Positions 43,209 to 61,172 of a stretch of 64,000 nt of DNA are shown piece by piece. Each line of letters opens with the position of its first letter. Within the stretch, counting starts at the first letter, position 1. The notes below the pieces were generated by a model. That model ran no database searches and was not told where the DNA came from. It was given only the letters and a program-made list of their open reading frames with translations. Origin of the DNA: an uncultured Planctomycetia bacterium (GTDB lineage: Bacteria; Omnitrophota; Gorgyraeia; 2-02-FULL-51-18); assembly GCA_964606485.1 (NCBI GenBank), contig CAZSGP010000001.1:289085-353084 (forward strand), in the 5' to 3' direction. Both the position numbers and the translations under genes were made by a program.

Positions 43209-44105
43209 ATGTCAACATTTGATAAGCTTTCAGTTATGCCCACAAAGTTAAGGTATAAAATTTTAACGGCTTTTTGTTTGATGTCTCTCGTTCCGATCCT
43301 GGTCGGTCTCTACGTGGCGTCTCTTTTTGTGAAATTTCCATTTCTCGTGACTCCTCAAAATTTAATGACGATTTCTGCGGTGATGCTGTTTAGTCTCGTG
43401 CTATCGATTCTGGGTTATATCGTTACCCAGCAGCTAGTGGGTCCCATTGTGAACGCGGCGCTAGCGGCGCGACAAATTGCTTCGGGCCGCGTCGAATCGA
43501 TGAAAGAAATTAAAATTGAAAAAGGCGCCGATGAGCTAGAGGATTTGTCTAGAAGCCTTCAGATTATTTCAAGCAACGCTAAAGCGCTGATCAACGAGGT
43601 CGAAAAGCTTTCGCTACGCGACCGGCTGACCGGTCTTTATAATTTGTCGTATATTCGGGAGCGTCTAGGAGAGGAGATTCAGCGGGCGTACCATTTCCAG
43701 AAGCCATGTGCGTTCAGTTGTATCGCTGTGGAAAATCTTCAAGCTTACCGTGTTAAATATGGGGAAGCTGCTGCGGATGAGATTCTTAAAAAAATAGCGG
43801 GCATTATTCGGAAACATCTAGAAGTTTTCCAGCCCGCCGCTAAAATTTCAGATGATGACTTTGCGCTGATTTTGGCAGGGGCCAATTCCAAAAAAGCAGT
43901 GGAGGTTGCGGAGCTTATTCAAAGAGAAGTGGATGGGCTTCCTCAGGTCCAAACGGAACGTTCAGAAAATTTAAAAATCGGTTTAAGTGTGGGTGTTAGC
44001 GCAAACCCCATTGATGGGAATAATGCGGACGAACTATTTCTAAAGGCGCAAGTTCGGATGAAGACTGCTCGCTCTAAGGGCAGAAACGCAATAGAAGCTT
44101 TTTAG
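43209..44105 (+). CDS. Membrane-anchored GGDEF-domain protein with a degenerate active site (SDDDF in place of GG[D/E]EF)
   Basis: Two N-terminal transmembrane helices. RDRLTGLYNLSY and RSKGRNA flank the degenerate motif KISDDDFALIL. No RxxD I-site. Confidence 0.75.
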   Translation: MSTFDKLSVMPTKLRYKILTAFCLMSLVPILVGLYVASLFVKFPFLVTPQNLMTISAVMLFSLVLSILGYIVTQQLVGPIVNAALAARQIASGRVESMKEIKIEKGADELEDLSRSLQIISSNAKALINEVEKLSLRDRLTGLYNLSYIRERLGEEIQRAYHFQKPCAFSCIAVENLQAYRVKYGEAAADEILKKIAGIIRKHLEVFQPAAKISDDDFALILAGANSKKAVEVAELIQREVDGLPQVQTERSENLKIGLSVGVSANPIDGNNADELFLKAQVRMKTARSKGRNAIEAF

Positions 44106-44117: not shown

Positions 44118-45194
44118 ATGGCGACAAAATTTGCATCAATGACGGAACTTCTCCGATACACGCTTTCGAAACGCGCGTCGGACGTGCATATCGGCGAAAA
44201 TATGGCTCCCATGATGCGGGTAGACTCGGAGCTTGTGCAGATTGAAGACGCGACGGTTTACACTAAAGATGAAATTATGAAATTCATCATGGAGTTTTTA
44301 AGTGAAGAGCGTTTCAAAGTGTTTGAGCAGGAGCGAGAGCTTGATTATTCGTTCGGCATCAAAGACCTTGGACGCTTTCGCGCGAACCTTTATTTTCACA
44401 AAGGTTCGATTGGGGCCGCTGTCCGCGCGCTGCCGTTCGTGCCGATGAATTTTGAAAAAATTGGTTTTCCAGCCGCAGTTGCCGAAAACTTGGCATGCAA
44501 GCCTTCGGGTATGGTTTTGGTTTGCGGGGCAACCGGCTCCGGTAAAACGACGACGCTTGCTGCGATGATTGATTACATCAATCAAACGGACCCAGTTCAT
44601 ATCGTGACCATGGAAGATCCGATTGAATTTGTTTTTCAAGACAAGCGGGCGGTAATTTCTCAGCGCGAAGTGGGTTCGGACACGCACTCGTTTAACCAGT
44701 CATTGAAACATGTGCTGCGCCAAGATCCGGACGTGATACTCGTGGGTGAGCTGCGCGACTTGGAGACCATTGAAATGGCCATGACGGCGGCTGAAACGGG
44801 TCACTTGGTTTTTGCAACCCTTCACACGCCGGACGCGGTGCAGTCCATTAATCGTATCATTGACGTTTTTCCGGCGCATCAACAACAGCAGGTGCGCGTT
44901 CAGTTGTCGTTCGTCATTCAGGCCGTCATTTGTCAGCAGCTCATTCCTCGCGTGGGCGGCGGGTTGTCGCTGGCTCCAGAAATCATGATTGCGACGCCGG
45001 CTATTCGCACACTGATCCGCGATTCGAAGTCTCATCAGATTTATTCTTCGATTCAGATGGGTCAAAAAGAAGGCATGAGAACGATGAATATGAGTTTAGC
45101 AGAGCTTGTGAAGGCGAACCGGATTACAAGGGAAGACGCGTACAATCGCTCCAATGATATTCCGGAACTAGAAAGGTTAATTAATAATCGGTAG
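44118..45194 (+). CDS. pilT: Type IV pilus retraction ATPase PilT
   Basis: GATGSGKTTT Walker A. PilT-length protein (358 aa) lacking the GspE N-domain. Confidence 0.9.
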   Translation: MATKFASMTELLRYTLSKRASDVHIGENMAPMMRVDSELVQIEDATVYTKDEIMKFIMEFLSEERFKVFEQERELDYSFGIKDLGRFRANLYFHKGSIGAAVRALPFVPMNFEKIGFPAAVAENLACKPSGMVLVCGATGSGKTTTLAAMIDYINQTDPVHIVTMEDPIEFVFQDKRAVISQREVGSDTHSFNQSLKHVLRQDPDVILVGELRDLETIEMAMTAAETGHLVFATLHTPDAVQSINRIIDVFPAHQQQQVRVQLSFVIQAVICQQLIPRVGGGLSLAPEIMIATPAIRTLIRDSKSHQIYSSIQMGQKEGMRTMNMSLAELVKANRITREDAYNRSNDIPELERLINNR

Positions 45195-45199: not shown

Positions 45200-45640
45200 A
45201 TGCCACCTAGAAAAGTTATTCAAAAAAATTTAGGTCAAATCTTGATGGATTCCAAAATCATCACCCAAGAGCAATTGGACAATGCTCTTAAAACGCAGGA
45301 TGAGAAGGGTGGTCTGATCGGACAAATTTTGGTCTCGTTTGGGTTTACGACAGAAGATGCGATTGCCCGTGCGCTGACGGCGCAGTATGGTTTCCCGTAC
45401 ATGCCGCTTGCCGGTTATGAAATGGATGCGCAGGTGGTGAAGCTGATTCCTGAAAACGTCGCCCAACAGTACGAAATCGTGGCGGTGGACCGGATGGGCA
45501 ATGTTTTGACCGTGGCCATGTCTAATCCGCTGAATTATCAGGCCATCGAAGACATTGAAATGCTTACGAAATGCCGCATTCAAACTTTTGTTTCCACTTC
45601 GACAGATATTAAGGAAGCAATCGCAAAGTATTATAAATAG
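45200..45640 (+). CDS. Standalone GspE/MshE N-terminal (MshEN) domain protein, a putative c-di-GMP receptor
   Basis: Two copies of the MshEN-type motif: LGQILMDSKIITQEQLDNALKTQ and IGQILVSFGFTTEDAIARALTAQ. No ATPase domain. Confidence 0.75.
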   Translation: MPPRKVIQKNLGQILMDSKIITQEQLDNALKTQDEKGGLIGQILVSFGFTTEDAIARALTAQYGFPYMPLAGYEMDAQVVKLIPENVAQQYEIVAVDRMGNVLTVAMSNPLNYQAIEDIEMLTKCRIQTFVSTSTDIKEAIAKYYK

Positions 45641-45649
45641 AGGTTTCCA

Positions 45650-47386
45650 ATGCCTTCGATTTCGAAAGAAAAAATTGGCCAGCTGCTGGTTGAAAATAAT
45701 TTCATCACCCAGGAAAAATTAAACGAAGCGCTGGAACTGCAAAAGCAGAAAAAAGAAAATCTGGCGGACATTCTGATTCGCCTGGGCTATATTTCCCGCG
45801 ACAATTTGATGGAAGTGCTCAGTATTGAGCTCGGTATTCCGGCCATCCATCTTTCGAAATATAAAATCACGCCCGAAATTCTTCAGGGTATTCCGAAACG
45901 CATGGCTGAAAACCATTGCATGATGCCTATCTCGCGATTTGGGAACACCATCACCGTTGCCATGGCCGACCCGATGAATGTGATGGCGATCGATGACATT
46001 AAGCGGTTGACCAAAATGGAAGTGAGGCCGGTGCTCGCAAACGAGCTCGACATCAAACAATCGATCGAACAATACTACGGTGTTGGAACAGGGATTGGCG
46101 CAACGGCGACGGGGATTGCGGTTAAAGCCGGGAAAATGGCGGTGGAAGCGGCAGCGCCCGAGCCGGCAGCCAGCGTTTCGGAGTCGCTTTCTGCGCTCGA
46201 TAATGAACCGGTTGTGAAACTGACCAACTCCATTATTGTGGACGGTGTGCTCAGGCGTTCGAGCGATATTTTTATCGAGCCCGAAGAAGCAAGTATGCGC
46301 GTGCGTTACCGCGTCGACGGACTTCTGCAGGAAGGTGTGACGGACGCGAAAGTCATGCATTTGGGAGTGGTTTCAAGAATCAAAGTCATGTCAAAGCTCG
46401 ACATTGCCGAGCACCGTGTTCCTCAAGATGGTCGGTTTAAGGCGAAAGTAAAAGACAAGGAAGTGGATTTCCGTGTTTCGGTTTTGCCAACTTATTTTGG
46501 CGAAAAAATTGTTTTGCGCGTGCTAGATAAGCAATCTTCGGTTCTCGATTTAGAAAAATCTGGATTTGAGCCGGAGCCACTCGCGGCGATCAAAAAAGCT
46601 TCAGAGCATCCACACGGCATGATTGCCATCTGCGGCCCGACGGGTTCTGGAAAAACAACAACACTTTACTCCACCTTAAAATTAATTGATAAGCCTGAAA
46701 CCAATATTGTGACCGTTGAAGACCCGGTCGAATTTCAATTGCCCGGAATCAATCAGGTGGCGGTCCGCTCCGAAGTGAAGCTGACGTTTGCCGCGGCGCT
46801 CCGGTCGATTTTACGCCAAGACCCAGATGTCATCATGGTGGGTGAAATCCGCGATTCTGAAACAGCGGACGTGGCGGTCAAGGCGGCCTTAACGGGACAT
46901 TTGGTTTTGAGCACGCTTCACGCGACCACGGCACCCGGAGCGATTACGCGTCTTGTGAATATGGGCATCGAGCCGTTTCTGATAACGTCAAGCTTGCTGC
47001 TCGCCGGTTCACAGAGACTCGTTCGAAAAGTGTGTGAGAAATGCAAAGAGGGCTACGAGCCTTCCAATGAACTCATTCAACAGCTTGGAATGACCGAAAA
47101 ACAAATCGCCGGAAAAAAATTAGTGTTTTACCGCGGTAAAGGGTGCGATGCCTGTAAAAATAAAGGCTACTCTGGTCGCGCGGTGCTGCTTGAAACGCTC
47201 ACAATTTCTCAGGCCGTCAAAGCGCTGATCTTGAAGGGCGCTCCCGAATACCAACTCAAAGTTCAAGGCCGCAAGGAAGGGATGCTCACCCTCCGGGAAA
47301 ATGGAAACGCTAAAATTTTACAAGGTATCACGACTCCCGAAGAGGTTATGCGCGTGACGGTTCGAGACACGGAAGGCAAGGCATGA
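45650..47386 (+). CDS. pilB: PilB/GspE-family extension ATPase (paralogue 1) with an N-terminal MshEN-like domain
   Basis: GPTGSGKTTT. N-terminal IGQLLVENNFITQEKLNEALELQ. C-terminal Cys4 (CEKCKEGY...CDACKNKGYSGR). Confidence 0.9.
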   Translation: MPSISKEKIGQLLVENNFITQEKLNEALELQKQKKENLADILIRLGYISRDNLMEVLSIELGIPAIHLSKYKITPEILQGIPKRMAENHCMMPISRFGNTITVAMADPMNVMAIDDIKRLTKMEVRPVLANELDIKQSIEQYYGVGTGIGATATGIAVKAGKMAVEAAAPEPAASVSESLSALDNEPVVKLTNSIIVDGVLRRSSDIFIEPEEASMRVRYRVDGLLQEGVTDAKVMHLGVVSRIKVMSKLDIAEHRVPQDGRFKAKVKDKEVDFRVSVLPTYFGEKIVLRVLDKQSSVLDLEKSGFEPEPLAAIKKASEHPHGMIAICGPTGSGKTTTLYSTLKLIDKPETNIVTVEDPVEFQLPGINQVAVRSEVKLTFAAALRSILRQDPDVIMVGEIRDSETADVAVKAALTGHLVLSTLHATTAPGAITRLVNMGIEPFLITSSLLLAGSQRLVRKVCEKCKEGYEPSNELIQQLGMTEKQIAGKKLVFYRGKGCDACKNKGYSGRAVLLETLTISQAVKALILKGAPEYQLKVQGRKEGMLTLRENGNAKILQGITTPEEVMRVTVRDTEGKA

Positions 47387-49155
47387 AAAACCTAAACGAA
47401 TTCTTAATGGACGGTCTCAAAAAATTCACCAAGGTCACCGAGGCGGATGTCCGAAAAGCCGTGGCACTTTATTCCAACAAAGAGAGCGGAAAAATCGGAG
47501 AGGCTCTCATTCAAATGGGGCTTGTCACTGAAAAGGATCTGCGGCTGCTTTTAAGTGTAGAATTAAAAATTACAACGGTAAGCCTTGCGGACAAAAAAAT
47601 AAGCTCTGAGATCGGAAAAATGGTGCCAGAGCGCTACGCGAAGCGGTATTTATTTGTCCCGCTTTCAAACGTGGGCAACACTCTAACGCTCGCGATGGTG
47701 GACCCGCTCAATATTTTTGCGCTCGACGACGTTTCGGTTCTTAAAAATAATCGCGTCGAGTGCGTGATGTGTTCGGAGGGAGATGTTCAGCTGGCGTTCG
47801 ACCGTATTTATGGACGCGTGAAGGATAAGCCTGTAACACCAGAGACGGGAGTAAAGCCTCTGACGGCTGCGGCTGCTGCGGCTAAAGTGGCCAATACGAT
47901 TGGGGATGTTCGCGTTCAGGACGAGACTGACTCCGGCATGTTCGCAGGGGAGACTAATCAGGCGCCAGTGGTTAAAATCGTGGACGCTATCCTGCAAGAG
48001 GCGTTGAGGCGTCGGGCAAGCGACATTCACATTGAGCCCTACGAAGAAAAAGTTCGGGTTCGCTTCCGTATCGACGGAGGACTGCAGGAAGCTCAGGGCG
48101 TTGAAGTTCCAAAGAAAAATCAAAACGCGGTTTTGACTCGTTTAAAGATCATGTCAAAGCTGGACATTACTGAAAACCGAATTCCACAGGACGGTCGTTT
48201 TAAAATTAAATTTCAACAAGACGGCAAAGAAAAGGAAATTGATTTTCGCGTATCAATCCTTCCGATTCACCACGGCAGTAAAGTGGTTATGCGTATTTTA
48301 GATAAAAGTGCTCTGAGTTTGGGACTGGATAATCTTGGATTTTTGCCTGAAACGTTGAATGCCTTTAAAGATGCCGTGGCAAAGCCCTTTGGAATGATAT
48401 TAATCACCGGCCCAACTGGAAGTGGAAAGTCCACCACACTTTACTCCATTTTAAATCAGCTCAACACGCCCGATAAAAATATTATCACCGTCGAAGAGCC
48501 GATCGAATACCAGGTTCGGGGGATTAGCCAGATTCAGGTGCGCCAGGAAATTGGTCTTGATTTTGCCAGCGGCCTTCGCGCTATTTTGCGTCAGAGCCCG
48601 GATGTGGTGATGGTGGGTGAAATCCGCGACGGAGAAACAGCCGACATCGCGATCAAAGCGTCGCTGACGGGACAAATTGTGCTCAGCACGCTTCACACCA
48701 ACGATGCGTCGGGTGCCGTCACCCGCTTGGCGGATATGGGCATCGAGCCCTTCTTAATCGCGTCCAGCGTAATTTTAGTCGCTGCACAACGCCTATGCCG
48801 AAAAGTTTGTTCACAATGCAAACAGCCGATTGATATTCCCAGAGAGGTGTTCGAGCGCATGGGTCTAAACCCCGATACAATGTTCCCGGATATCAAAGAA
48901 AAAAAATTCATGAAAGGCGTCGGATGCGAAAACTGCAGTTTTACCGGGTATCGCGGACGCATGGGGGTGCTTGAGACGCTGATGATTGACGACGAGCTCC
49001 GCGAACTCATCGTTAAACGCGCATCGTCTTATGAAATCAAAGATTATGCCGTCAAGCATGGCATGACAACCTTGAGAGAAGATGCGCTTAAAAAATTTTG
49101 TTTGGGTTCTACGACGCTCGACGAAGTGATTCGCATAACTGCAGAGGACGAATAA
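47383..49155 (+). CDS. PilB/GspE-family extension ATPase (paralogue 2)
   Basis: GPTGSGKSTT. C-terminal Cys4 (CSQCKQ...CENCSFTGYRGR). ATGA overlap with paralogue 1. Confidence 0.9.
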   Translation: MKNLNEFLMDGLKKFTKVTEADVRKAVALYSNKESGKIGEALIQMGLVTEKDLRLLLSVELKITTVSLADKKISSEIGKMVPERYAKRYLFVPLSNVGNTLTLAMVDPLNIFALDDVSVLKNNRVECVMCSEGDVQLAFDRIYGRVKDKPVTPETGVKPLTAAAAAAKVANTIGDVRVQDETDSGMFAGETNQAPVVKIVDAILQEALRRRASDIHIEPYEEKVRVRFRIDGGLQEAQGVEVPKKNQNAVLTRLKIMSKLDITENRIPQDGRFKIKFQQDGKEKEIDFRVSILPIHHGSKVVMRILDKSALSLGLDNLGFLPETLNAFKDAVAKPFGMILITGPTGSGKSTTLYSILNQLNTPDKNIITVEEPIEYQVRGISQIQVRQEIGLDFASGLRAILRQSPDVVMVGEIRDGETADIAIKASLTGQIVLSTLHTNDASGAVTRLADMGIEPFLIASSVILVAAQRLCRKVCSQCKQPIDIPREVFERMGLNPDTMFPDIKEKKFMKGVGCENCSFTGYRGRMGVLETLMIDDELRELIVKRASSYEIKDYAVKHGMTTLREDALKKFCLGSTTLDEVIRITAEDE

Positions 49156-49156: not shown

Positions 49157-50368
49157 ATGCCAAATTATCGTTATGTTGCACGAGATAAAACCGGAAAAAG
49201 TATTACGGCCGTTATGGACGCTAATGATGAGAAAGCTGTCATCGATTTTGCCCGCCAACAAGGCTTGATTCTGACCTCCATCAAGATAGACGCTCAGGAA
49301 ACCAAGAAGGTTGCCAAGCCCAAAACCGGCAAAAAAATAAAATTAACCGATTTGGTTCTTTTTTCAAGACAGCTGGCAACCATGATTGATAGCGGTATCC
49401 CACTTTTGCAGGCGCTTGAAATTTTATCGGAACAATCTGAAAATCCCGCCTTTGTGAATATATTGAATATCGTTAAAAACGATGTGGCCACCGGAACTGC
49501 CTTTTACGAGGCGCTCGCAAAACATCCGGGCGCATTTACTCCTTTATTTGTGAACATGGTGAAAGCAGGGGAGTCGAGCGGCGCGCTCGATGACATTATG
49601 GAGCGCTTGGCATCCTATCTTGAAAAAACGGATGCACTCATCCGAAAAGTGAAATCCGCCATGACGTATCCGATCGTTGTATCGACCATGGCGCTTAGCA
49701 TTACACTGGTTATGTTGCTTAAAGTAGTGCCTGTGTTTAAGAGTATGTTCGCGGATTTCGGAGCCGCACTCCCGCTCCCGACACAAATCTTAGTCACCAT
49801 CAGCGATAATTTGATCAGCACTTTCTTTCTGTGGTTTTTTGGAGCCATAGCCGGATTTGTAATGTTGGGCAAGTACATCAAGACACCTAAGGGGAGATTA
49901 CGATTCGATCACTTTAAGCTCAACATGCCTGTTTTCGGAGTCATTATGCGAAAAGTTTCGGTGAGCAAGTTTTGCCGCACACTCGCAACACTCGTTAAGA
50001 GCGGCGTGCCGATTTTAGCCGCGCTTGAAATCGTTGGAAAAACCGCCGGAAATAAAGTGATTGAAAACGCCGTCGACAGCGTTAAGTCGAGCATCCGTGA
50101 AGGAGAAAATATCTCCGAGCCTCTTGCCAAATCAAAAGTATTTCCGCCCATGGTGGTGCGCATGATCGCGGTCGGTGAGCAGACCGGAGAACTTGAAAAA
50201 ATGTTGAGCAAGGTTTCTGATTTTTACGACGACCAGGTGGACGCCGCTATTTCAGGGATCACTAGTTTGATCGAGCCGCTCATTATTGCCTTCTTGGGTA
50301 TCGTGATCGGCGGTATCGTGATTTGTATGTTTCTCCCAATCTTTAAGATCGCGAACATGGTTAGCTAG
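49157..50368 (+). CDS. pilC: Type IV pilus / T2SS platform protein PilC/GspF
   Basis: 403 aa. Two GspF repeats. Polytopic. Confidence 0.9.
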   Translation: MPNYRYVARDKTGKSITAVMDANDEKAVIDFARQQGLILTSIKIDAQETKKVAKPKTGKKIKLTDLVLFSRQLATMIDSGIPLLQALEILSEQSENPAFVNILNIVKNDVATGTAFYEALAKHPGAFTPLFVNMVKAGESSGALDDIMERLASYLEKTDALIRKVKSAMTYPIVVSTMALSITLVMLLKVVPVFKSMFADFGAALPLPTQILVTISDNLISTFFLWFFGAIAGFVMLGKYIKTPKGRLRFDHFKLNMPVFGVIMRKVSVSKFCRTLATLVKSGVPILAALEIVGKTAGNKVIENAVDSVKSSIREGENISEPLAKSKVFPPMVVRMIAVGEQTGELEKMLSKVSDFYDDQVDAAISGITSLIEPLIIAFLGIVIGGIVICMFLPIFKIANMVS

Positions 50369-50370: not shown

Positions 50371-51849
50371 TTGAAAACACGCCCACACTTTTTTTATATC
50401 ACCTTTATTTGCCTTGCAGGGTTTCTTGCGTATTCCAGCATTTTAAGCGGCGCATTTTTATGGGATGACATTAATTTAGTCCGCGACAATATCTTGATCC
50501 GCAGTTTTAAAAACCTCCCTCTCATTTTTTCTCACAACATCGGCGAGGGTTCCGCCGTGAGCTATATTTTTTACCGCCCCATGCAAGTCTTTAGTTATAT
50601 GTTGGATTTTTCGTGGTGGGGACTGAATCCGGATGGGTACCATTTGACGAACATCGTATGGCATCTTCTGGCTGCGAGTCTTGTTTATTTTGCTGCCTTT
50701 GAAATACTCAAAGATAAAACCGCTTCTTTTTTGACGGCACTTTTATTTGCGCTTCATCCGGTTCACACGGAGGCGGTGGCTTATATTTCAGGGCGCGCCG
50801 ATTCTCTTGCCCTTGTTTTTTTGCTGGCGGCTTTTTTAGGTTACCTGAAATCACTGGAATCTCGCAGGATTGGCATCCAAATAGCGTCAATAGCATTTTT
50901 TTTAATGGCCATTCTTTCAAAGGAAAGTGCGCTTATTTTTCCGGTGCTTATTTTTTTGCATCACCGCGTTTTTAAAACAAAATTTCCAGGACTCCTCTTT
51001 TGGTTATCGGTAGGGATCACCCTAGCCTACGGAGCGCTCCGGCTGACGCTCTTAAGGAGCTTCATGATTTTTGAGTCCGGACACGGAAATATTTTTGAAA
51101 GAATACCCGGATTTTTCGCGTCATATTTGAACTATCTCAAACTGCTCGTGTGGCCGTCGCCCTTGCACATGGAATATGGTTTTACGATTTACAAATGGTC
51201 CGATCCATTTGTCTGGGGCGGCGCTGTGGCGATGACCATTCTTTTACTAGTCATGGTTCAATTGTGGAGGCGAGGGGAACGCGCCATTTTTTTTGGGTGC
51301 GCCTGGTTTCTCGTTGCACTAATCCCTGTATCCAATTTATTTTTACTAAACGCCTCAATGGCGGAGCACTGGCTTTATGTTCCGTCGATTGGAGTTTTTC
51401 TAGCGTTGTCTGAGTGGACAGCACCTCTCTTCAAAAAGTCAAAATTAAAGGAATTGGCGGTGATCAGTGTTGCCGCAATTTTAGCAGGCTATGGACTCGC
51501 CACATTTGAACAGTCCAAAACATGGAAAGACCCGGTTATTTTTTACGAAAGAACGCTAGATTATGCCCCCAATAGTCTTGCCGTGAATGTAAATTTAGGG
51601 CTCGCACTTTATGAGAGAGGTGAAATTTCAAAAGCGTATCTTGTTTTTAAAAAAGCGGTGGAGCTTGGGCCGAATCAGTATTTCCCGTACTTTGGTCTGG
51701 GGTTGTGCGCAAATTCCTTGGGTAAACACCCGGAGGCGATAGCTGCCTACAACCGTTGCCTGGAGCTAAAGCCAGACTTGGTTCAGGCGCATAATAATTT
51801 ATCGGAAATTTATTACCCTAAAACTTTAAAAGGGGGAAGAGGTGAATAG
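50371..51849 (+). CDS. TMTC/PMT-like GT-C fold glycosyltransferase homologue (DUF1736-type) with C-terminal TPR repeats
   Basis: N-terminal FLWDDINLVRDN (acidic loop-1 motif) and GYHLTNIVWHLL resemble TMTC O-mannosyltransferases. Polytopic. C-terminal TPRs. Overlaps the pilin start. Confidence 0.65.
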   Translation: MKTRPHFFYITFICLAGFLAYSSILSGAFLWDDINLVRDNILIRSFKNLPLIFSHNIGEGSAVSYIFYRPMQVFSYMLDFSWWGLNPDGYHLTNIVWHLLAASLVYFAAFEILKDKTASFLTALLFALHPVHTEAVAYISGRADSLALVFLLAAFLGYLKSLESRRIGIQIASIAFFLMAILSKESALIFPVLIFLHHRVFKTKFPGLLFWLSVGITLAYGALRLTLLRSFMIFESGHGNIFERIPGFFASYLNYLKLLVWPSPLHMEYGFTIYKWSDPFVWGGAVAMTILLLVMVQLWRRGERAIFFGCAWFLVALIPVSNLFLLNASMAEHWLYVPSIGVFLALSEWTAPLFKKSKLKELAVISVAAILAGYGLATFEQSKTWKDPVIFYERTLDYAPNSLAVNVNLGLALYERGEISKAYLVFKKAVELGPNQYFPYFGLGLCANSLGKHPEAIAAYNRCLELKPDLVQAHNNLSEIYYPKTLKGGRGE

Positions 51850-52213
51850 AAGTTTAAGCGAGGCCGGATTTACACTCGTCGAAATTATGATCGTCGTAGC
51901 TATTATTGGATTGCTGGCTGCTATAGCGGTCCCTAACTTTGTCAGAGCCAGAGAATCCGCTCGCAGTAGCGCCTGCGTGAATAACTTGCGCCTAATTGAT
52001 GCGTCCAAAGAGCAGTATGCTTTGGAAAATAACATCGCGCATGGCGGGGCTACCACCTCTGATAGCCTGACGCCCTATCTGAAAAATAATGCATTTCCGC
52101 AGTGTCCGGCTACAAGTTCTACGTACGCCACGAATGCTGTGGGGACCTATCCTAGTTGCGACCTGTCAGGAGCCTCTTCCGGGCAAACCCCGCTGAGCCA
52201 TCGACTCAATTAA
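51842..52213 (+). CDS. Type IV pilin / pseudopilin (prepilin N-terminal methylation motif)
   Basis: Leader MNRSLSEAG followed by FTLVEIMIVVAIIGLLAAIAVPNF. Ser/Thr-rich C-terminal third. Confidence 0.8.
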   Translation: MNRSLSEAGFTLVEIMIVVAIIGLLAAIAVPNFVRARESARSSACVNNLRLIDASKEQYALENNIAHGGATTSDSLTPYLKNNAFPQCPATSSTYATNAVGTYPSCDLSGASSGQTPLSHRLN

Positions 52214-52334: not shown

Positions 52335-53555
52335 GTGCAGTTGGTGCCGATGAGAAACTCATATCATTTATACGCTCCGGGAGATCAGTTTCAGATTGAT
52401 ATTAAATATCTCTCGGCCGGCGGTGAGCAGGCGAGTGAGAGTAAGGTTGTCAATGTGGCGGATGTGAGAGGCGGGGGTTTTTTTGGAAAAGTGCTGATCC
52501 TTCGGGGTGAGGGCTTTGTGATTAAAACAACTCAGCCCGATCCGTGGCAGCATTTTTGGAGAATTGTGAATTGGGATTTTAAGCCATTTCCAGCCCAGCA
52601 GGATGAATTATCCGCTCAGATCGAACACCTATCCACTCAGATCATTCACCTGACTCTCCCCATTGTTTCTGGGGGAAAGTTTTATAGTCCTCGGTCCATT
52701 GGCTACACGCTTTTAGCGAATGGATTCGCTCAAGTGATAGAGAAAATGAGCGGTCGAGGACCTCGTTTTGACAAGGCGGGCAATGAGTATGAGTTATTTC
52801 GCCAGGCGCAGTCGGAGCTCGCCACAATTGCTCTGAGTCTTGGATTGGAGGCTGTTGGACAAATTCATCCGGACAACCCTTTTAGTATGGCGAACCTGTG
52901 GTTAGACGAGAGCCGGAATCGCTTTGTCTGGCTGGATACAAACGCGGCAATTCGTCATACCGGTTGGGTGAAACCAATATTTTATTTCAAATTTCATAAG
53001 CGTATTCGAAATGAGTTTGGGGGTAAAGAGCTTACGTTTAATAAGATTCATGCTGACCGATTTCGCGCAACGCTTAAGCGGAAGCAAGGCGAATTTGATG
53101 AAAAAATTTACGCGATGATTATGAATTATTTAGATTTGTACGAACGTTTATGGAATAGACGAAAGGTTCGGCATGAAAATCAATCCTTTGATGTGGAGAA
53201 TGTCTTTCTTGTGCTGAGGCAGCTAGCCCTAAACATAGTCCCGGGTATTGTGCATGCGTTACGGAAGACGCTGATGTGTCCCATGCAGTTGGTGTTTAAG
53301 AGCCGGTTCGGTCATCAGCTACGACTTCAGTCCGCATTGCAGGCTTTGCAGTGTGGATTGCTATCGCAGGATGAATATTGCCAGGCTATAGATGGTGATC
53401 GAACGCTGCTTCGGCACTGTGTTATCCGAAAATTTATTCGTGATCTCTCTAAAATTAGTCCAGCCGGAGGTGTGGGGTCCCAGTTGGATGCGCAGCTTTG
53501 GCTCAAGTTAGGAAGTCGGATAGAGAAGATATTGGAAAGCCGGCAATGCGCTTAA
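52335..53555 (+). CDS. Atypical kinase-fold protein (eukaryotic-like kinase / APH / Kdo-kinase type)
   Basis: Gly-rich loop plus Lys (GGGFFGKVLILRGEGFVIK). Brenner-type catalytic motif HPDNPFSMANLW. WLDTN (DFG-like). GTG start at 52335 or ATG at 52350. Confidence 0.45.
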   Translation: MQLVPMRNSYHLYAPGDQFQIDIKYLSAGGEQASESKVVNVADVRGGGFFGKVLILRGEGFVIKTTQPDPWQHFWRIVNWDFKPFPAQQDELSAQIEHLSTQIIHLTLPIVSGGKFYSPRSIGYTLLANGFAQVIEKMSGRGPRFDKAGNEYELFRQAQSELATIALSLGLEAVGQIHPDNPFSMANLWLDESRNRFVWLDTNAAIRHTGWVKPIFYFKFHKRIRNEFGGKELTFNKIHADRFRATLKRKQGEFDEKIYAMIMNYLDLYERLWNRRKVRHENQSFDVENVFLVLRQLALNIVPGIVHALRKTLMCPMQLVFKSRFGHQLRLQSALQALQCGLLSQDEYCQAIDGDRTLLRHCVIRKFIRDLSKISPAGGVGSQLDAQLWLKLGSRIEKILESRQCA

Positions 53556-56500
53556 TAGAGAAGGAGGGGCAAGGGAGAAATTTTGTGAGACTTTGCGTTA
53601 AGCTTCTTTTGATTTTTGATGTGATTCTTTGCTTGCTGCACCAGCTATTTCCGCATTATCAATGGGGTCAGGGCAGGAGCTCCTATTTCACTCTCTCAAG
53701 TGCAATGACACTGAGTTCTTGGTTTATCAGTATGCAGTTAATCGGGATATCGATCTTCTCATTGCTAACTCTTCTTAAGAGGTGGGACTGGGGGCGACGG
53801 GGTACTTTTCAATGGGTTTGGTTTTTATTGGTATCGGCCGCGTTATCCGTGGCGGAGTTTACGCGATTTCATATCAAAATGAACTTTCTCAATCCCCTTG
53901 ATTCAAACATCTTTCATTCGATTGGAGTCTATCTGCTTGGGGGTATGTTTTTAGGTGTAAGCGGCACACTCATCTGGATGACGCCTGGAGCCTCGTTGCG
54001 GACGAAAATCTTGAGCTTTGGGTGGCTTCTATCGTGGTTGGGCGCAGGCTTATTAACACTGGGTAGCGCATGGGCGCCCGCTGATTGGATGGGCGCGGTT
54101 GCCTATTTATTTGGCACTACGTTGTGGCTAGCGGTAGCTTCAGAACTCTATTTTCAAGAACCAAGTCAGGAGCATCGTGCCGATAACGCCAAAGAAGCTC
54201 CTCCTGTTTCAATTGGCTCAACATGGCTGCTGCTGGGAGTTGCGGGAAGCTCATTTACGATGATTTTTTTACAAGTACTACACTTTCAAATTTTGACCGT
54301 TGCGGTGGATACCCTGGCCGCGCACTCTGTGCTTCCGCTCGCACTCATTGGAATTGCCGTGGGAGGAATTCTGGGGTTGAGAATATCGAGAATGGATTCG
54401 GCGGGGCAATTGAGCGTCGGACTTGCGGCGCTACTGCCAATTTCAATTTGTGCTAGTTTTGCTGTGGCGTCAAATGAGCCCTCACATTTAGCGCTTGGTT
54501 TGGCGCTACTTTTTATTCCGTTTATGATTTGCGGCGCACTCATCACATTAGGTCTCGTATGGTTGCAACCGAGCGTTGTGTATTGTGTGGATTTATTGGG
54601 AGCGGCGCTAGGCGCTTTTTGTCTTCCCTTTTGTTTGGCTTATTTTCAAGAGGAGGGTAGTCTTTGGTTTTTAGCGGCAATCGCTTGCTTGGTAGCCGTT
54701 TGTTTTGCAAAGGCTTATCGAATGTTCGGCCGCCGATTCTCCGTAATCCCCTATCTGGCGCTCGCTGGGTTTATGGCGTTCACGGCAATGGCTTATACGC
54801 AAAAACAGGGGCAGGGGCTGAATATCGTAGCCCCTAAAATCCAGGCGAGCTTTCCCGGCTCAGAAATCATTTTTTCAAAGTCATCTTTTGTAGGGCGGGT
54901 TGATTTGGTACGACGAAGCCGTAAAAGCGATTTGCTAAAGGCCTATGAGAACGGTTTTACCATTGATACGATTCGCAAAAATATCCCTGAGCAGTATCAA
55001 ATCGATCCGCGGATACCCAGCCGGCTGGCAACGAACCCAAAAATTCTTATTCTAGGTCTTGCTGGAGATGGGGTTACTAAAACGGCCAAACAACTGAGCA
55101 ACTCCGTCACGGGAGTAGAGATAAACCCTGCCATGGTTGCTTTACAGAAGAGTGAAGCCTCTGAATTTAACGCAAACAGTTACCAGGGCATCGATGTCAA
55201 GGTTATGGATGCCCGCAGCTTTCTTCAAACTAGTTCCGAACAATATGACGTCCTTACTCTATTAAACGCGCACACTGCTCGCGGCCGGGCGCATTATAGC
55301 GGGGTCAGTGCTGAGTATCTCCATACCAAAGAGGCGGTGCGAGAGTATTGGGATCATATGACTCCAAGAGGATTTCTAAGCATTGAGGAGCCCGCTGATC
55401 GCCCATCAAAGGAGCCTGGCATCTGGAAGTTTCTGGTAACCATGCGGGGCGCTCTGTTGGATGCGGGAGCACAGAACCCTGAAAATCATTTTTTTGTTTT
55501 TCAATGGAAGACAAAATCAAATAATTACATCCAGATCATCCTAAAGAAGTCTCCCTTTACGCAAGAGCAAATCTCCGATTTAAAAAAATGGCTCGATGAG
55601 ATTGATCGGTTGCGAGAAATAGAGAAAATCCAGCAGAGGCGTCTAGGACCCATAGACTGCAAAACAACTTTGCTTTACTCGCCCGGGGAGAATGTTCAAA
55701 CCACCTATGCCAACCTGATTCGCGGAACTGCTAACCCGCAATTGCACAAACAGCGCAACCTAGTTCCGGCGACTGATGACCGGCCATTTTTGTTTAACAC
55801 CGATCCTCGGCAGGGGGCTTTGTACAGTGTTTATCTGCGAACGCTTCTATTGGTTTTACTTCTGGGAGCTTGGTTGATAGGGTTGATGAGAAAACAAAAT
55901 GCCAAGTCATTTGAAGTTCTATCAGTGCTGTGCATGGCATCGTTAACAGGCGTTGGGTATTTATTGGTAGAGCTTGTCTTGATGCAGCGGTATCAAATTT
56001 TTTTAGGGTCTCCCGTCACGGTGTTTTGCGTGGTTTTAGGATCTATGCTGGTATTCTCAGGTTTAGGCAGTTTGTGGGGTGCCCGCCACGGTTTGAGGGC
56101 TATGGTGTTTTCAATTATTGGCGTGGTGGTGAATTTATGGATGCACCAGCAGTTTGCCCCCATTTTTTTGGATAAATTTTCCAATCAAGCATTGATCATA
56201 AAGTGCTTTATTACCATAGCGAGTTTAGCCCCGTTATCATTTTTTATGGGAGTTCCATTTCCTTACCTTATCCAGAATATTAAAGAGCGTTTAAACGCCT
56301 CATTTGCCGGGGCGGCGGTTGCCGCAAATGCAGGGGCAAGTGCGCTTGGTGTCCCCCTAGCATTGATGCTTTCGATGAAACTAGGTTTTAACGGTGCATT
56401 TGCCTGCGCTATGCTTATTTATGGTGCGGTTGCCGTTTCGTTTTTTTGGATGAACCGGAATAGGTTTGCTATAGCAGGATTTTTTTCTTTGACGATTCTC

Positions 56501-57343
56501 GCGGTAACGTTGGCCAGCCCAACCTTGATTAATTTGTGTTCCGGTGATTTGAAAGACAAAAATAATGGATACCAGGTTTATGGAATTCGTTACGGACGAT
56601 CACTCATGGCTGAACGACAGCTGATTCGCGGGGGGGATAAAAATAAGAAGGTTTCTTTGGATTGGAGATTTTGGCTCGTTCAGGGGTCTGGTAAAAATAT
56701 ACTGGTTGATACGGGTTTTGAAAATCCATCTTTGGCGCGCCAGAAGCATTTTTCAAAGTATGTTCGCCCATCAAAAAAACTTTCCGATCTTGGAATAGAG
56801 CCTTCTGAAATTACGGATGTGATTTTGACTCATGCGCATTGGGATCACGCGGGCGGTGTGCGGATGTACCCGAATGCCGTTATCTGGATGCAGAGCCGAG
56901 AGTGGGAGCATATGCTCCAGCTAAAAGTGAGCAATCAAAAAAAGGTTAAGGGTATGCGATACAAGGATTTCGAGGCGCTAGAACAAGCTTATGAGCAAGG
57001 CCGTTTACGATTGTTGAGCGGAGATGCGGATGTAGCTAGCGGCATTCGTGTTGAACTGGGTGGCGGACACACGCCCGGGTCTCAGGCGGTGATCGTCAAG
57101 GGCTTGGAAGGCAATTTTATTATCGCGGGGGACACCACTTATCTTTATCGAAACAGCCAATGGCATCAACCGATTGGGGGCGGTGCGGATTCCGAAGAAA
57201 ATTTACGAATGATTCGGCGTTTTCACGCAGACTCAGCGTCCCCTTACTATATTTTACCCGGACACGATCCATTGATTGGCCGGTGTTTTCCGGAGGTTGC
57301 CAAAGGAATTGTTGAGATCACCTCCGCGGCGGAGCGTCGATGA
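53546..57343 (+). CDS. Giant polytopic membrane protein fusing a spermidine-synthase-like domain and a C-terminal MBL-fold (lactonase-like) domain
   Basis: About 440 aa of transmembrane helices. PABS-like region ILILGLAGDG...VTGVEINPAMVAL...DVKVMDARSFL...YDVLTLL. A second transmembrane block. C-terminal HAHWDHAGG (HxHxDH, AiiA-like). The start could instead be the track's 53498. Confidence 0.7.
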   Translation: MRLIEKEGQGRNFVRLCVKLLLIFDVILCLLHQLFPHYQWGQGRSSYFTLSSAMTLSSWFISMQLIGISIFSLLTLLKRWDWGRRGTFQWVWFLLVSAALSVAEFTRFHIKMNFLNPLDSNIFHSIGVYLLGGMFLGVSGTLIWMTPGASLRTKILSFGWLLSWLGAGLLTLGSAWAPADWMGAVAYLFGTTLWLAVASELYFQEPSQEHRADNAKEAPPVSIGSTWLLLGVAGSSFTMIFLQVLHFQILTVAVDTLAAHSVLPLALIGIAVGGILGLRISRMDSAGQLSVGLAALLPISICASFAVASNEPSHLALGLALLFIPFMICGALITLGLVWLQPSVVYCVDLLGAALGAFCLPFCLAYFQEEGSLWFLAAIACLVAVCFAKAYRMFGRRFSVIPYLALAGFMAFTAMAYTQKQGQGLNIVAPKIQASFPGSEIIFSKSSFVGRVDLVRRSRKSDLLKAYENGFTIDTIRKNIPEQYQIDPRIPSRLATNPKILILGLAGDGVTKTAKQLSNSVTGVEINPAMVALQKSEASEFNANSYQGIDVKVMDARSFLQTSSEQYDVLTLLNAHTARGRAHYSGVSAEYLHTKEAVREYWDHMTPRGFLSIEEPADRPSKEPGIWKFLVTMRGALLDAGAQNPENHFFVFQWKTKSNNYIQIILKKSPFTQEQISDLKKWLDEIDRLREIEKIQQRRLGPIDCKTTLLYSPGENVQTTYANLIRGTANPQLHKQRNLVPATDDRPFLFNTDPRQGALYSVYLRTLLLVLLLGAWLIGLMRKQNAKSFEVLSVLCMASLTGVGYLLVELVLMQRYQIFLGSPVTVFCVVLGSMLVFSGLGSLWGARHGLRAMVFSIIGVVVNLWMHQQFAPIFLDKFSNQALIIKCFITIASLAPLSFFMGVPFPYLIQNIKERLNASFAGAAVAANAGASALGVPLALMLSMKLGFNGAFACAMLIYGAVAVSFFWMNRNRFAIAGFFSLTILAVTLASPTLINLCSGDLKDKNNGYQVYGIRYGRSLMAERQLIRGGDKNKKVSLDWRFWLVQGSGKNILVDTGFENPSLARQKHFSKYVRPSKKLSDLGIEPSEITDVILTHAHWDHAGGVRMYPNAVIWMQSREWEHMLQLKVSNQKKVKGMRYKDFEALEQAYEQGRLRLLSGDADVASGIRVELGGGHTPGSQAVIVKGLEGNFIIAGDTTYLYRNSQWHQPIGGGADSEENLRMIRRFHADSASPYYILPGHDPLIGRCFPEVAKGIVEITSAAERR

Positions 57344-59907
57344 TGAGACCATCCGAGCGGCTTTTGAACATTTTGTTGTTTAGCCTGTTTGCCGCGGCAG
57401 TTATTTTTGGTGTGCTGCACGGCGTGTACCAGGATTGGCAGGTGGGTGGAGTGGAGTGGTTTAATCTGGACCGGGAGAGAAATTTTCCAACATGGTTTTC
57501 AGGTTTTGTGCTTTTTTTGATGGGTTGCTCCTCTGTGGTTGCCTACTACTGGGAAAAGAAGCGATTGGCTGAGGGGGTTAAGCACTTTAAGCTGCCGGTG
57601 CTATGGTTAGGAGTGGCGTTTTTAAGCTTTTTAATGTCACTAGATGAAATGACCGCGCTTCACGAGAATATTTGCTGGCGCGAGATTCGTCAGTTTTCCG
57701 CTTCAAAAGGCGGGGGCTTCGAGCATGTCACCCAATGGCAAATTCTTTTTATCCCGCTTCTATTGATCATCTTTTCTTACTTCGCCGTGTTTTTTTTAAA
57801 TCGATTTGCTTCTAGCGCCCGCATGCGCTTTTGGGGTCTGTCGGGCCTAGGGTGCCTGCTGTTTTCTATCGCTTTGGAGGGGCTAAGAAATTGGTTTAAA
57901 CATCATGGGCACGACTTTTACAGCGCACAGGTTTTGGGTGAGGAATTATTAGAAATGTTTGGGATGTTGTTTATTTTTGGAGCCATTCAGTTCTACGTGA
58001 AAGATATTTCTAACAGCTCCGCGGGCTTAAACCCAAAGAGACTGCCAGTAGGACCTGCTTTTTTTACTCGCAAATCCGCGGGAGCTCTTTTAATACTATT
58101 TGTCGCCTTTACGTTACTCGCACTGCTTGCGTATAAAACAGCTGCGAGCTTATCGAAAAAAGGGGTGGGGGCACCCAAATTGTTTGATCAAGCTCTTCGT
58201 TCCAACTTAAAGGAGACAAACGAAAAATCGGTGGTATGGTTTGAAAATGTTGAAGGTGTTGGCAATACCTTAACTTTCGAACAGGGGGCTCAAATGGTTC
58301 GCTCCGCGCACCTAGCGCTGAAATCACCTGGCGAGACTGCTCATAGTTGGCCGCTAGATCTATCGAATGATCAAGCCCCTAGAATCGCATTTCTTTCAGT
58401 AACCACTGGTAAGTCTAGGGCCCGAGTTTTTTCTGGGACGGGCCTCGGTTACACAAAGGCTCTGGAGCAATCGATAGTAAAGGCTCGCAAGGTTTTTAAA
58501 AACTCTCAGAAAAATTTATGGGTTAAGCTGGATATCGTTTCAGAGGTCAGAGTTGCGGCTTCTAATAACCCGGATGATTTTGAAGGGCTTAGTTTTGGTC
58601 TAGAGGGTATTGCCACCGGCAAACCGTCGCCTTCCGCGCTTATACCGGAAGTTCTTTCCTCGCGCGGTTACATCAGTTCCGCGGGCCGCCCCACCTCAAA
58701 GCTTACGGAATGGATCTCCAATAGAAAAGAAGCCCAAAACATTTTCCGCTTTAAAACAAAAAGTTATTTTAGCGACAAAGATACGGTTGTGGAGCTCTAT
58801 AGGGGTCATCGGGTGTACGATCAGCTGAGTCGAGAGATTTTGATGGATTCAGCAAAACGCGCAGGCGAATACCTTGTGAGAAATACGGATGAGAACGGAC
58901 GATTTAATTATATTTATAAGCCCGAAGTGAACCGGGTGATAAATTCATATAACGTGGTGCGTCATGCGGGAACCCTCTATTCAATGATGGAGCTTTATGA
59001 GGCGGCACCGGATCCAGAGCTTTTATCGGCCGCCACCCGCGCTATTAGCCACTTATTGAGTTATGCGCGACCTGTGGAGACTCGTTTGGGCAATGCGCTT
59101 GCAATTGTGGACGGGACGAGTGTGAAACTTGGAGCCAATGCTCTGACGGTTGTTGCATTATCAAAGTATATGCAAGTCACCGGAGACCGTAAAGAGGCGG
59201 ATAAGTTAATCAAGCTCGGCCTTTATATTCGAGATTCACAACTAGAATCTGGCGAGTTTATTTGTAAACGAGAGCACCCTAGCGGCAATCAAATTCCATT
59301 TCAATCGGAGTACTACCCCGGCGAAGCTATATTGGCCATGGTCAGGCTCTATGAACATGATCCGCAACCTTACTGGCTAGACAGCGCCCAAAAAGCTACC
59401 GATTTTCTGATTCATGTCAGGGATAAGGGTTTAGCGACGGAAAAGCTCATCCATGATCATTGGCTTATTATGGGATTAAATGCTCTGGCTGAACACAGAC
59501 CGGACGCTAGTCATACCCAGCATGCCCTTCGAATTGCGGAGGCTATTATGAAGAGCCAGATTCAACATTCAGCCATAGAAGATTATATCGGGGGATGGGG
59601 CGAGCCCCCGCGGGCTACGCCTGCCGCTACTCGAAGCGAAGGTTTGATAGCGGCTTATCGAATAGCCGAGCGGCAAGGAATGAATGATTTTAAAATTAAG
59701 GTAATGGACTCGCTGGGGAAGGCTGTCAAATTTCAGCTAGGAAACCAATTTGGGTCCGAATCTTCCATGTATATGCCATTCCCAAAAAAATCAATCGGCG
59801 CCTATCGCCGTAGTCATTTATCCTACGAGACACGAATTGACTATAGCCAACATAACATCTCTAGTTTAATAGGGTTATGTAGTATTCTTAATAAGTTAGA
59901 AGATTAA
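57340..59907 (+). CDS. Membrane protein with a large C-terminal soluble alpha-helical (toroid-like) domain
   Basis: About 280 aa N-terminal transmembrane region. ATGA overlap with the upstream ORF. No confident domain assignment. Confidence 0.5.
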   Translation: MMRPSERLLNILLFSLFAAAVIFGVLHGVYQDWQVGGVEWFNLDRERNFPTWFSGFVLFLMGCSSVVAYYWEKKRLAEGVKHFKLPVLWLGVAFLSFLMSLDEMTALHENICWREIRQFSASKGGGFEHVTQWQILFIPLLLIIFSYFAVFFLNRFASSARMRFWGLSGLGCLLFSIALEGLRNWFKHHGHDFYSAQVLGEELLEMFGMLFIFGAIQFYVKDISNSSAGLNPKRLPVGPAFFTRKSAGALLILFVAFTLLALLAYKTAASLSKKGVGAPKLFDQALRSNLKETNEKSVVWFENVEGVGNTLTFEQGAQMVRSAHLALKSPGETAHSWPLDLSNDQAPRIAFLSVTTGKSRARVFSGTGLGYTKALEQSIVKARKVFKNSQKNLWVKLDIVSEVRVAASNNPDDFEGLSFGLEGIATGKPSPSALIPEVLSSRGYISSAGRPTSKLTEWISNRKEAQNIFRFKTKSYFSDKDTVVELYRGHRVYDQLSREILMDSAKRAGEYLVRNTDENGRFNYIYKPEVNRVINSYNVVRHAGTLYSMMELYEAAPDPELLSAATRAISHLLSYARPVETRLGNALAIVDGTSVKLGANALTVVALSKYMQVTGDRKEADKLIKLGLYIRDSQLESGEFICKREHPSGNQIPFQSEYYPGEAILAMVRLYEHDPQPYWLDSAQKATDFLIHVRDKGLATEKLIHDHWLIMGLNALAEHRPDASHTQHALRIAEAIMKSQIQHSAIEDYIGGWGEPPRATPAATRSEGLIAAYRIAERQGMNDFKIKVMDSLGKAVKFQLGNQFGSESSMYMPFPKKSIGAYRRSHLSYETRIDYSQHNISSLIGLCSILNKLED

Positions 59908-59950
59908 AAATTAACAATACTTATAATTTAATAAATATTATAATTGAATA

Positions 59951-59978
59951 TTGACATTTATTAAATATAATATATAAT
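59951..59978 (+). promoter_or_regulatory. Consensus sigma70 promoter TTGACA-16-TATAAT inside an AT-rich tract, upstream of the minor-pilin operon
   Basis: Exact -35 and -10 hexamers with a 16-nt spacer. About 65 nt upstream of ATG 60046, which has an AAGGAGA ribosome-binding site. Confidence 0.5.
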
Positions 59979-60045
59979 TTAATTAGAATTGATGCAATAA
60001 TAGGTTTGAGATTTTGATGTCAAAAAACTGTCCAAGGAGAGTCAT

Positions 60046-60612
<567 letters not shown>

Positions 60613-60641
60613 TTATGAGCAGTAGAAGAAAAGGAGTTTTT

Positions 60642-61130: not shown

Positions 61131-61172
61131 TCCTAGAAAAGAGGGCGGCTCTTTTGGTGCGTGCGTGGTTAG

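Follow-up and report, generated by a model that had tools for sequence, protein, structure and literature searches.

Why would a type IV pilus gene cluster encode an MshEN domain as a protein of its own, immediately upstream of two PilB ATPases that have N-terminal domains of the same family? The locus that raises this question lies in a 64,000-nucleotide stretch of DNA (the window, throughout this text; positions 289,085–353,084 of contig CAZSGP010000001.1, assembly GCA_964606485.1) from an uncultured Planctomycetia bacterium, which the GTDB lineage places in the Omnitrophota. The protein in question has 146 residues, is encoded at 45200..45640 on the + strand, and consists of a four-helix bundle and a T2SSE_N1 subdomain without an ATPase. 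To our knowledge, MshEN is one of the few widespread receptor domains for cyclic di-GMP (c-di-GMP), and nearly all work on it concerns ATPase-fused copies. From the sequence and a structural model we favour the reading, at a probability of about 0.6, that the stand-alone protein belongs to the Omnitrophota type IVa pilus motor cluster as a detached subunit that senses c-di-GMP and acts in trans on PilB.

The protein is a complete MshEN domain, with the predicted two-subdomain fold of that family, and is separately encoded. MshEN (PF05157) is its sole Pfam domain (residues 63–145; 68.6 bits against a cut-off of 23.1; E 4.8e-19), and a Pfam search gave no match to the T2SSE ATPase domain in the protein, which stops at a TAG codon. 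The motif region, residues 10–62, is the part outside the Pfam match. NF053729 ('c-di-GMP_motif'), a curated 53-position NCBI model described as 'cyclic di-GMP-binding domain-containing protein, MshE-related', matches residues 11–62 at 60.3 bits (cut-off 38).

The published MshEN motif is RLGxx(L/V/I)(L/V/I)xxG(L/V/I)(L/V/I)xxxxLxxxLxxQ, and the relaxed search pattern used here for scoring, [RKPN]hGxxhhxx[GAS]hhxxxxhxxxhxx[QNKRYWST], provides 11 scored positions per motif (PMC5013675). Motif I (NLGQILMDSKIITQEQLDNALKTQ; residues 10–33, 45227..45298, + strand) agrees with the relaxed pattern at 10/11 positions and has Lys in place of Gly, Ala, or Ser at position 10. Motif II (LIGQILVSFGFTTEDAIARALTAQ; residues 39–62, 45314..45385, + strand) agrees at 9/11 positions, the misses being Leu at position 1 and Thr at position 12. 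Between the two lies the five-residue spacer DEKGG (residues 34–38, 45299..45313, + strand), and the T2SSE_N1 subdomain, also called MshEN_C and presumed to be a protein-docking module, follows motif II (residues 63–146, 45386..45637, + strand). The polar ligand-contact positions are all present (G12, Q33, G41, and Q62), and the Leu-triad positions 2, 17, and 21 are aliphatic in both motifs (L11, L26, and L30; I40, I55, and L59), with Ile for Leu at two of them. The Arg that the strict motif has at position 1 is found in neither motif: the residue is Asn in motif I and Leu in motif II, the latter within the extended R/K/L consensus (PMC11731258). The two peptides that an earlier note on this DNA had quoted as MshEN motifs are indeed present, at residues 11–33 and 40–62 and with a spacer as in MshE, and they align to the published motif as that note had expected.

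A six-frame scan of the window for the tandem motif, covering 26,778 stop-free segments of 53 residues, found a score of 19/22 only in the 146-residue protein and in PilB1; the next best segments, at 16/22, were membrane segments. Because only these two reach 19/22 and everything else stays at or below 16/22, we take the motifs to be real and homologous and not a product of chance.

In a phmmer search against PDB sequences, the protein from residues 8–10 to 145 aligns to the N-domains of Thermus PilF (E 3.8e-43), Geobacter PilB (1.9e-28), and Myxococcus PilB (6.8e-23), and residues 5–118 align to Vibrio cholerae MshE (5HTL; E 9.2e-16). The protein is 44.5% identical to the Geobacter PilB N-domain, versus 33% for the N-domain of PilB1 and 28% for that of PilB2. 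A single-sequence AlphaFold2 (AF2) model was unusable, with a predicted local distance difference test score (pLDDT) of 40.2, and the model described here was built from a 64-sequence alignment; it has a pLDDT of 88.5 and a predicted template modelling score (pTM) of 0.74, and contains helices at residues 11–17, 23–36, 40–47, and 52–63 followed by an alpha/beta subdomain. The top Foldseek match of this model is 5HTL, the structure of MshE with c-di-GMP (E 3.3e-12; template modelling (TM) scores 0.79/0.83; root-mean-square deviation 2.4 Å over 139 columns), followed by PilF GSPII-A (TM 0.82), GSPII-B–c-di-GMP complexes, and the Xanthomonas PilB-N–PilZ complex (7LKO). The earlier statement that the protein is a free MshEN/GspE N-terminal domain and nothing more is thus borne out by Pfam, by NF053729, and by the predicted fold. 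Like the MshE N-domain (5HTL, PMC5013675), it combines a two-subdomain fold with tandem 24-residue motifs, a five-residue spacer, the Leu, Gly, and Gln contact residues, and a basic N-terminal patch. Unlike MshE, in which the N-domain is fused to a T2SSE ATPase and both motifs begin with Arg, it is a separate polypeptide, 27–28% identical to the MshE domain, with Asn (Gln in most of the family) and Leu at the first positions.

Two polar contacts per motif define the binding site: the backbone amide of Gly3 reads guanine O6/N7, and the Gln24 side chain holds the ribose and phosphate (PMC5013675, PMC11731258). The combination G-Q-G-Q at these positions of both motifs is kept by 80/81 orthologues of the stand-alone protein and by none of the PilB1 (0/70) or PilB2 (0/56) orthologues. 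All six Leu-triad positions are aliphatic in 79/81 stand-alone proteins, 65/70 PilB1 orthologues, and 0/56 PilB2 orthologues. PilB1 has kept the fold and varies precisely the residues that are specific to the ligand. Its orthologues mostly have Thr or Ile at Gly3 of motif I and Ser at Gly3 of motif II and never have Gln at position 24 of motif II, so that typical patterns at the four contact positions are TQSG, TQSE, and GQGE. The contact residues of the stand-alone protein, judged from the same alignments, are under strong purifying selection.

The two ATPases of the window follow this trend. PilB1 (578 residues; 45650..47386, + strand; NCBIfam TIGR02538, 637 bits) has its own MshEN domain, which had been described in the earlier note as carrying the same two motifs. 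This is so for motif I (KIGQLLVENNFITQEKLNEALELQ), which is good; in motif II (NLADILIRLGYISRDNLMEVLSIE), Ala replaces the conserved Gly and Glu replaces the conserved Gln. PilB1 still passes NF053729, at 59.0 bits, with model positions 1–51 only. PilB2 (590 residues; 47383..49155, + strand), 44% identical to PilB1, had been credited with one clear copy. Motif II is present (KIGEALIQMGLVTEKDLRLLLSVE) but has Glu as its last residue where the motif has Gln; motif I has degenerated completely, and NF053729 gives no match. Since the contacts are kept in the stand-alone protein and lost in the PilBs, the locus points to one sensor detached from two degenerate ATPases and not, as had been proposed, to an extra sensing layer added to ATPases that sense for themselves.

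The effect of such substitutions is documented in other systems. In MshE, G11L abolishes binding, G40I weakens it 72-fold, and Q32A and Q61A weaken it 9- to 12-fold (PMC5013675). In GSPII-B of Thermus thermophilus PilF, Q190E binds 158-fold and Q218E 77-fold more weakly, and the double mutant does not bind (PMC11731258). The PilB of Pseudomonas aeruginosa, PA4526, has Ser at the Gly position and is among the tested proteins that Wang et al. class as non-binders (PMC5013675).

The absence of the position-1 arginines is, by analogy, less worrying and may not be disqualifying for c-di-GMP binding, since GSPII-B has Lys and Leu there and binds c-di-GMP at 6 nM (PMC11731258), the relaxed pattern allows Asn, and a basic N-terminal patch (K4, K5, and K9) is conserved in homologues of the 146-residue protein. 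The GSPII-B mutant L196R binds 4-fold more weakly and K167L binds at 2 nM, the consensus at position 1 has accordingly been extended to (R/K/L), and a hydrophobic first residue was proposed to predict very high affinity (PMC11731258). The stand-alone protein resembles GSPII-B (8PDK, PMC11731258) in having Leu at position 1 of motif II (L196 in GSPII-B), the two motifs sharing the near-identical core L[IL]G[QR]ILV..G....A[IL].RAL..Q, and GSPII-B reaches its affinity without arginine stacking. It differs in that GSPII-B is the middle of three domains fused within an ATPase, with a motif II one residue shorter and a motif I that begins with Lys.

The same arrangement recurs across the phylum. A protein search with the 146-residue sequence returned 2002 matches, the best 120 of which are almost all 143–157 residues long, 60–83% identical, and from Omnitrophica/Omnitrophota where named. 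Among GTDB species representatives, 462 genome stretches encode a relative; the best 80 of these are labelled Omnitrophota or, in third-party annotation (TPA) bins, 'uncultured Planctomycetia/Planctomycetales', with one labelled Eisenbacteria. The representative search also contains many single-domain relatives of 145–180 residues beyond the Omnitrophota stand-alone family. In the orthologues, motif I keeps L2 (87/88), G3 (87/88), L17 (88/88), and Q24 (88/88), motif II keeps L1 (87/88), G3 (87/88), and Q24 (88/88), and the spacer consensus of the family is KEKGG.

For synteny, 87 loci were annotated by BLAST with the window proteins. The order rodA–GGDEF–(pilT)–MshEN–pilB1–pilB2–pilC is near-universal, with pilT between the GGDEF-domain gene and the MshEN gene in about 60% of the loci. 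The stand-alone protein has 144–152 residues in about 80 loci, and pilB1 lies directly downstream of its gene in every locus that extends far enough. With a median identity to the window protein of 60.8%, the stand-alone MshEN is the most conserved gene of the pilus cluster, ahead of PilC (57.1%), PilT (55.2%), PilB2 (52.3%), PilB1 (51.7%), and RodA (48.0%). Gaps between the genes mostly range from −4 to +8 nucleotides, a spacing that suggests coupled expression, and the stand-alone protein is apparently co-expressed with PilB1. In the window, 5 nucleotides separate the pilT stop from the MshEN start, and 9 nucleotides, with a GAGG Shine-Dalgarno sequence before the pilB1 ATG, separate the MshEN TAG stop from pilB1.

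A divergent relative of the cluster was seen in GCA_028702395.1 (locus L088, 3922–4800), where the MshEN is 40% identical and the order is MreD–PBP2–RodA–X–PilT–MshEN–PilB; slot X is taken by a 292-residue protein with only a weak GAF_2 match, in place of the GGDEF-domain protein.

The deposited gene model of the protein (P0001; 131 residues, 100% identical) begins at Met16, 15 residues late, and drops K4, K5, K9, and the Leu-Gly of motif I. About 120 homologues conserve K4, K5, K9, and L11-G12 upstream of Met16; by this comparison the true start is the ATG at 45200, and the deposited model truncates motif I. The annotation is hereby corrected, as the 131-residue public model starts too late.

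Inferred from sequence and structure, the mechanism we envisage begins with the N-terminal four-helix bundle binding one c-di-GMP. The two Leu triads would stack on the guanines, the backbone amides of Gly12 and Gly41 would read their Hoogsteen edges, Gln33 and Gln62 would hold the ribose-phosphates, and the bases would be capped by Asn10 and Leu39, where MshE has arginines. Conservation and gene order suggest that the T2SSE_N1 subdomain then docks on the extension machinery, most probably on PilB1 or PilB2, whose own N-domains retain the fold without the ligand-contact residues. The level of the second messenger would thereby be coupled to pilus extension in trans.

PilB1 is, on comparative grounds, the most likely docking partner, because its gene is the invariant downstream neighbour and because some PilB1 orthologues have no N-domain of their own. 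The PilB1 orthologue of two species (three loci, L004/L005 and L023) has 392–396 residues and is without the MshEN domain; it starts at the equivalent of about residue 183 (L004/L005 8479–9669; L023 3619–4797), 43 nucleotides after the MshEN gene as measured in L004. The earlier note had left it at titration of c-di-GMP or docking onto the ATPases in trans. Of the two, we favour docking, since the T2SSE_N1 subdomain is unneeded for binding and yet is conserved like the ligand bundle (mean majority fraction 0.77 vs 0.79). Isolated MshE residues 1–62 bind c-di-GMP with a dissociation constant (KD) of 0.35 µM (PMC5013675).

A bolder version, which we put forward tentatively and consider possible rather than probable, is that the Omnitrophota transferred the c-di-GMP input from the ATPase to a detachable MshEN subunit, which serves two ligand-blind PilBs and replaces the PilB1 N-domain in some lineages. 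If true, the two-ATPase motor would have a regulatory domain that is split off and shared, and that possibly arbitrates among PilB1, PilB2, and PilT at the platform.

Variants of the family bear on the ligand as well. Three metagenomic proteins of 213–221 residues (P0003, P0011, and P0124) have an extra N-terminal four-helix bundle and a single N1 subdomain, with all four motifs intact and two KEKGG spacers. Duplication of the bundle only, with the motifs intact, is the outcome that would be expected of selection for ligand binding. A further metagenomic protein, P0156 (723 residues), has an N-terminus 51% identical to the 146-residue protein, followed by PilZ-like signatures recognized by eye (RRxxxR and DxSxxG). 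Its length had suggested an MshEN–PilB1 fusion, which we rejected, as the PilZ-like signatures and then unrelated sequence follow the MshEN domain and no ATPase is fused to it. P0156 is instead a candidate MshEN–PilZ double receptor for c-di-GMP.

Several observations weigh against a c-di-GMP sensor. Motif I begins with Asn here and with Gln in 76/88 orthologues, and Asn falls within the relaxed pattern [RKPN] of Wang et al. only. Position 10 of motif I is Lys and not Gly, a position at which the Geobacter and Myxococcus PilB proteins have Asn. The GSPII-A domain of PilF does not bind even with both motifs restored to consensus, which has been attributed to an elongated, capped helix α1 and to inter-subdomain contacts (PMC12002112), and GSPII-A is among the best sequence and structure matches of the 146-residue protein; by this precedent a motif match alone is no proof of binding. 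The GGDEF-domain neighbour is degenerate, both here (SDDDF, no RxxD) and in most species. Finally, a regular-expression search of the long open reading frames (ORFs) in six frames of the 64-kb window found no canonical GG[DE]EF, EAL, HD-GYP, or PilZ signature.

That neighbour, a 298-residue protein with a transmembrane segment, a HAMP domain, and a degenerate GGDEF domain (43209..44105, + strand), is conserved upstream of the MshEN gene. It matches Pfam GGDEF (E 4.2e-28) and NCBIfam TIGR00254, with HAMP under the cut-off; the A-site sequence is SDDDF, and an RxxD I-site is absent. A GGDEF-domain ORF occupies the slot between rodA and pilT or MshEN in 83/87 related loci, mostly with a degenerate A-site. 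The short HAMP class, to which the window's protein belongs, reads x[K/R]xEF or similar, and the long class, found without pilT, reads GDDEF, GDNEF, or ADDEF; canonical GGDEF is kept in only about 9–10 of about 80 orthologous neighbours, all of the long class. We considered whether the neighbour could be a local diguanylate cyclase that feeds the sensor, and its SDDDF site and missing RxxD leave this unsupported in this genome. A GGDEF protein that is conserved with a pilus cluster while apparently inactive might be a scaffold or a receptor. A Pfam search of 20 further window ORFs found no c-di-GMP genes, a result whose scope is the 64-kb window and not the rest of the genome.

The competitor that survives best takes its lead from GSPII-A: the protein would be a non-binding structural adaptor that bridges parts of the motor and keeps its motifs for the fold or for a protein interface. 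GSPII-A matches the motifs without binding, and still does not bind once they are restored (PMC12002112); it is the top-scoring PilF domain against the 146-residue protein in the phmmer search (63.5 bits) as well as a close structural match (TM 0.82), and the position-1 Arg is absent from both motifs of our protein. We consider an adaptor unlikely all the same. Gly3 and Gln24 face the solvent or the ligand and not the core, and GSPII-A itself has His and Arg at the Gln positions and Ala at Gly3 of motif II. PilB1, which would have the same fold to maintain, keeps the aliphatic positions in 65/70 orthologues and the contacts in none, whereas the stand-alone protein fixes the contacts in 80/81. 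The duplicated bundles of the ~215-residue variants, moreover, keep every motif.

Layered sensing, in which the stand-alone MshEN and PilB1, perhaps with PilB2, would all bind c-di-GMP at several thresholds, draws on the intact motif I of the window's PilB1, on its NF053729 score of 59.0 bits, and on the single Q-to-E mutants of GSPII-B, which still bind at 0.5–1 µM (PMC11731258). We think it doubtful, and rather more so than the adaptor. Motif II of the window's PilB1 has both the Gly-to-Ala and the Gln-to-Glu change, its orthologues mostly show Thr or Ile and Ser at the Gly3 positions and never end motif II in Gln, and PilB2 has lost motif I; a Gly substitution abolishes binding in MshE (G11L), and PA4526, with Ser at Gly, is classed as a non-binder (PMC5013675).

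It is very improbable that the protein is a c-di-GMP sponge or buffer that lowers the free messenger without contacting the pilus. A small, probably abundant, co-transcribed protein would suit that role, as would the high affinity predicted from the hydrophobic first residue of motif II. A 62-residue bundle would be enough for a buffer, yet the T2SSE_N1 subdomain is equally conserved and has 22 invariant columns among 64 sequences, and the invariant adjacency to pilB1 in about 80 species would be needless.

An artefact, whether a pseudogene fragment, a broken (MshEN)2-PilB N-terminus, or programmed read-through into pilB1, was suggested by the shared frame of the MshEN ORF and pilB1 in this window, a TAG and 9 nucleotides apart, and by the (MshEN)2-4–T2SSE proteins of other phyla, and we dismiss it: pilB1 has its own GAGG Shine-Dalgarno sequence and ATG, the MshEN gene stands separate in about 80 species and is the most conserved of the cluster, the sole apparent fusion in the loci (pilB1–pilB2, L063) is a run of N, and frame offsets spread 30/28/19 across species with gaps ranging from −82 to +498 nucleotides, so that the shared frame in the window is coincidental.

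Known systems provide partial parallels for a detached sensor acting on PilB. The protein resembles P. aeruginosa PA3740 (PMC5013675), a small MshEN-module protein without an ATPase, for which c-di-GMP binding and an effect on swarming have been reported. By analogy, we regard it as the precedent for a free MshEN receptor. The two differ in that PA3740, going by its first 80 residues and its published description, has canonical RLG motifs and a highly divergent N1 (PMC5013675), and the N1 of the 146-residue protein is canonical. In the Xanthomonas FimX–PilZ–PilB system (7LKO, PMC8389850; PMC10333796), too, a PilB with a non-binding N-domain is fed c-di-GMP information by a separate receptor. 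There the receptor is a degenerate EAL protein with a PilZ adaptor, of unrelated folds, whereas the candidate receptor here is a paralogue of the MshEN domain. The complex of GspE N1 with the cytoplasmic domain of GspL (2BH1, 4PHT) offers a likeness for the C-terminal residues ~63–146, which share the N1 fold that docks an ATPase to an inner-membrane platform. That complex comes from a type II secretion system and the similarity covers half the protein only; in Foldseek the GspE-N1–GspL complexes were weak matches to the C-terminal half (E 0.027–0.5, TMq 0.37–0.38, ~65 columns).

The catalogue of MshEN combinations includes (MshEN)2-4–ATPase arrays, MshEN_N-only proteins, and PA3740 (PMC5013675). 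MshEN as a c-di-GMP receptor and MshEN proteins without an ATPase are therefore already known, and NF053729 already recognizes the motif. In the literature searched, we found no description of an intact free MshEN fixed, across a whole phylum, beside two PilBs without the ligand residues.

The remaining genes of the cluster all lie on the + strand. Upstream of the GGDEF-domain gene are aroA, mreB, mreC, mreD, the PBP2 gene, and rodA. The gene preceding that of the MshEN protein encodes a PilT/PilU-family retraction ATPase of 358 residues (44118..45194, + strand), which matches NCBIfam TIGR01420 at 450 bits (cut-off 319) and Pfam T2SSE. The pilB2 gene overlaps pilB1 by 4 nucleotides and is followed by the gene for the 403-residue platform protein PilC (49157..50368, + strand; two Pfam T2SSF matches, E 1.7e-67), by that for a transmembrane/TPR protein, and by that for a 123-residue type IV pilin with the N-terminal methylation motif (51842..52213, + strand; Pfam N_methyl, E 1.3e-06). 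PilB1 and PilB2 are both full-length, with Walker and tetracysteine motifs recognized by eye, and are kept together phylum-wide; this conserved pair suggests a two-ATPase extension motor or two filaments. An apparent 1170-residue PilB1–PilB2 fusion in locus L063 could have served as Rosetta-stone evidence that the motor is heteromeric, but we rejected it because it stems from a run of N in the assembly.

Elsewhere in the window, the region 8036–16811 encodes a DnaG-type primase (Zn-ribbon and Toprim, 920 residues), a PIF1-like helicase, a large serine recombinase, and several ORFs without a Pfam match, and looks like an integrated mobile element or a prophage remnant. A 949-residue protein at 1678–4527 combines TPR repeats with the GreA/GreB C-terminal domain and the PIN domain of the 'TPR-GreAB-C-PIN' system. 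Downstream of the pilin, 52335–63063 holds large ORFs with little or no annotation: one of 406 residues without a match, a 1281-residue protein with multiple transmembrane segments and a metallo-beta-lactamase fold at its end, and one of 855 residues without a match, together with three small ORFs and a DUF7305 protein.

A phylum-wide, strongly conserved free MshEN that has the ligand residues, set beside two PilBs that do not, amounts to a natural experiment on how an N-domain communicates with its motor. With it, the question whether c-di-GMP controls pilus extension through docking of the N-domain can be addressed in a simple system whose parts are separable. The Omnitrophota are bacteria that have not been cultured, are often tiny, and may depend on hosts. 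Surface appendages are probably central to how they live, and a regulator of the main pilus would therefore be a useful handle.

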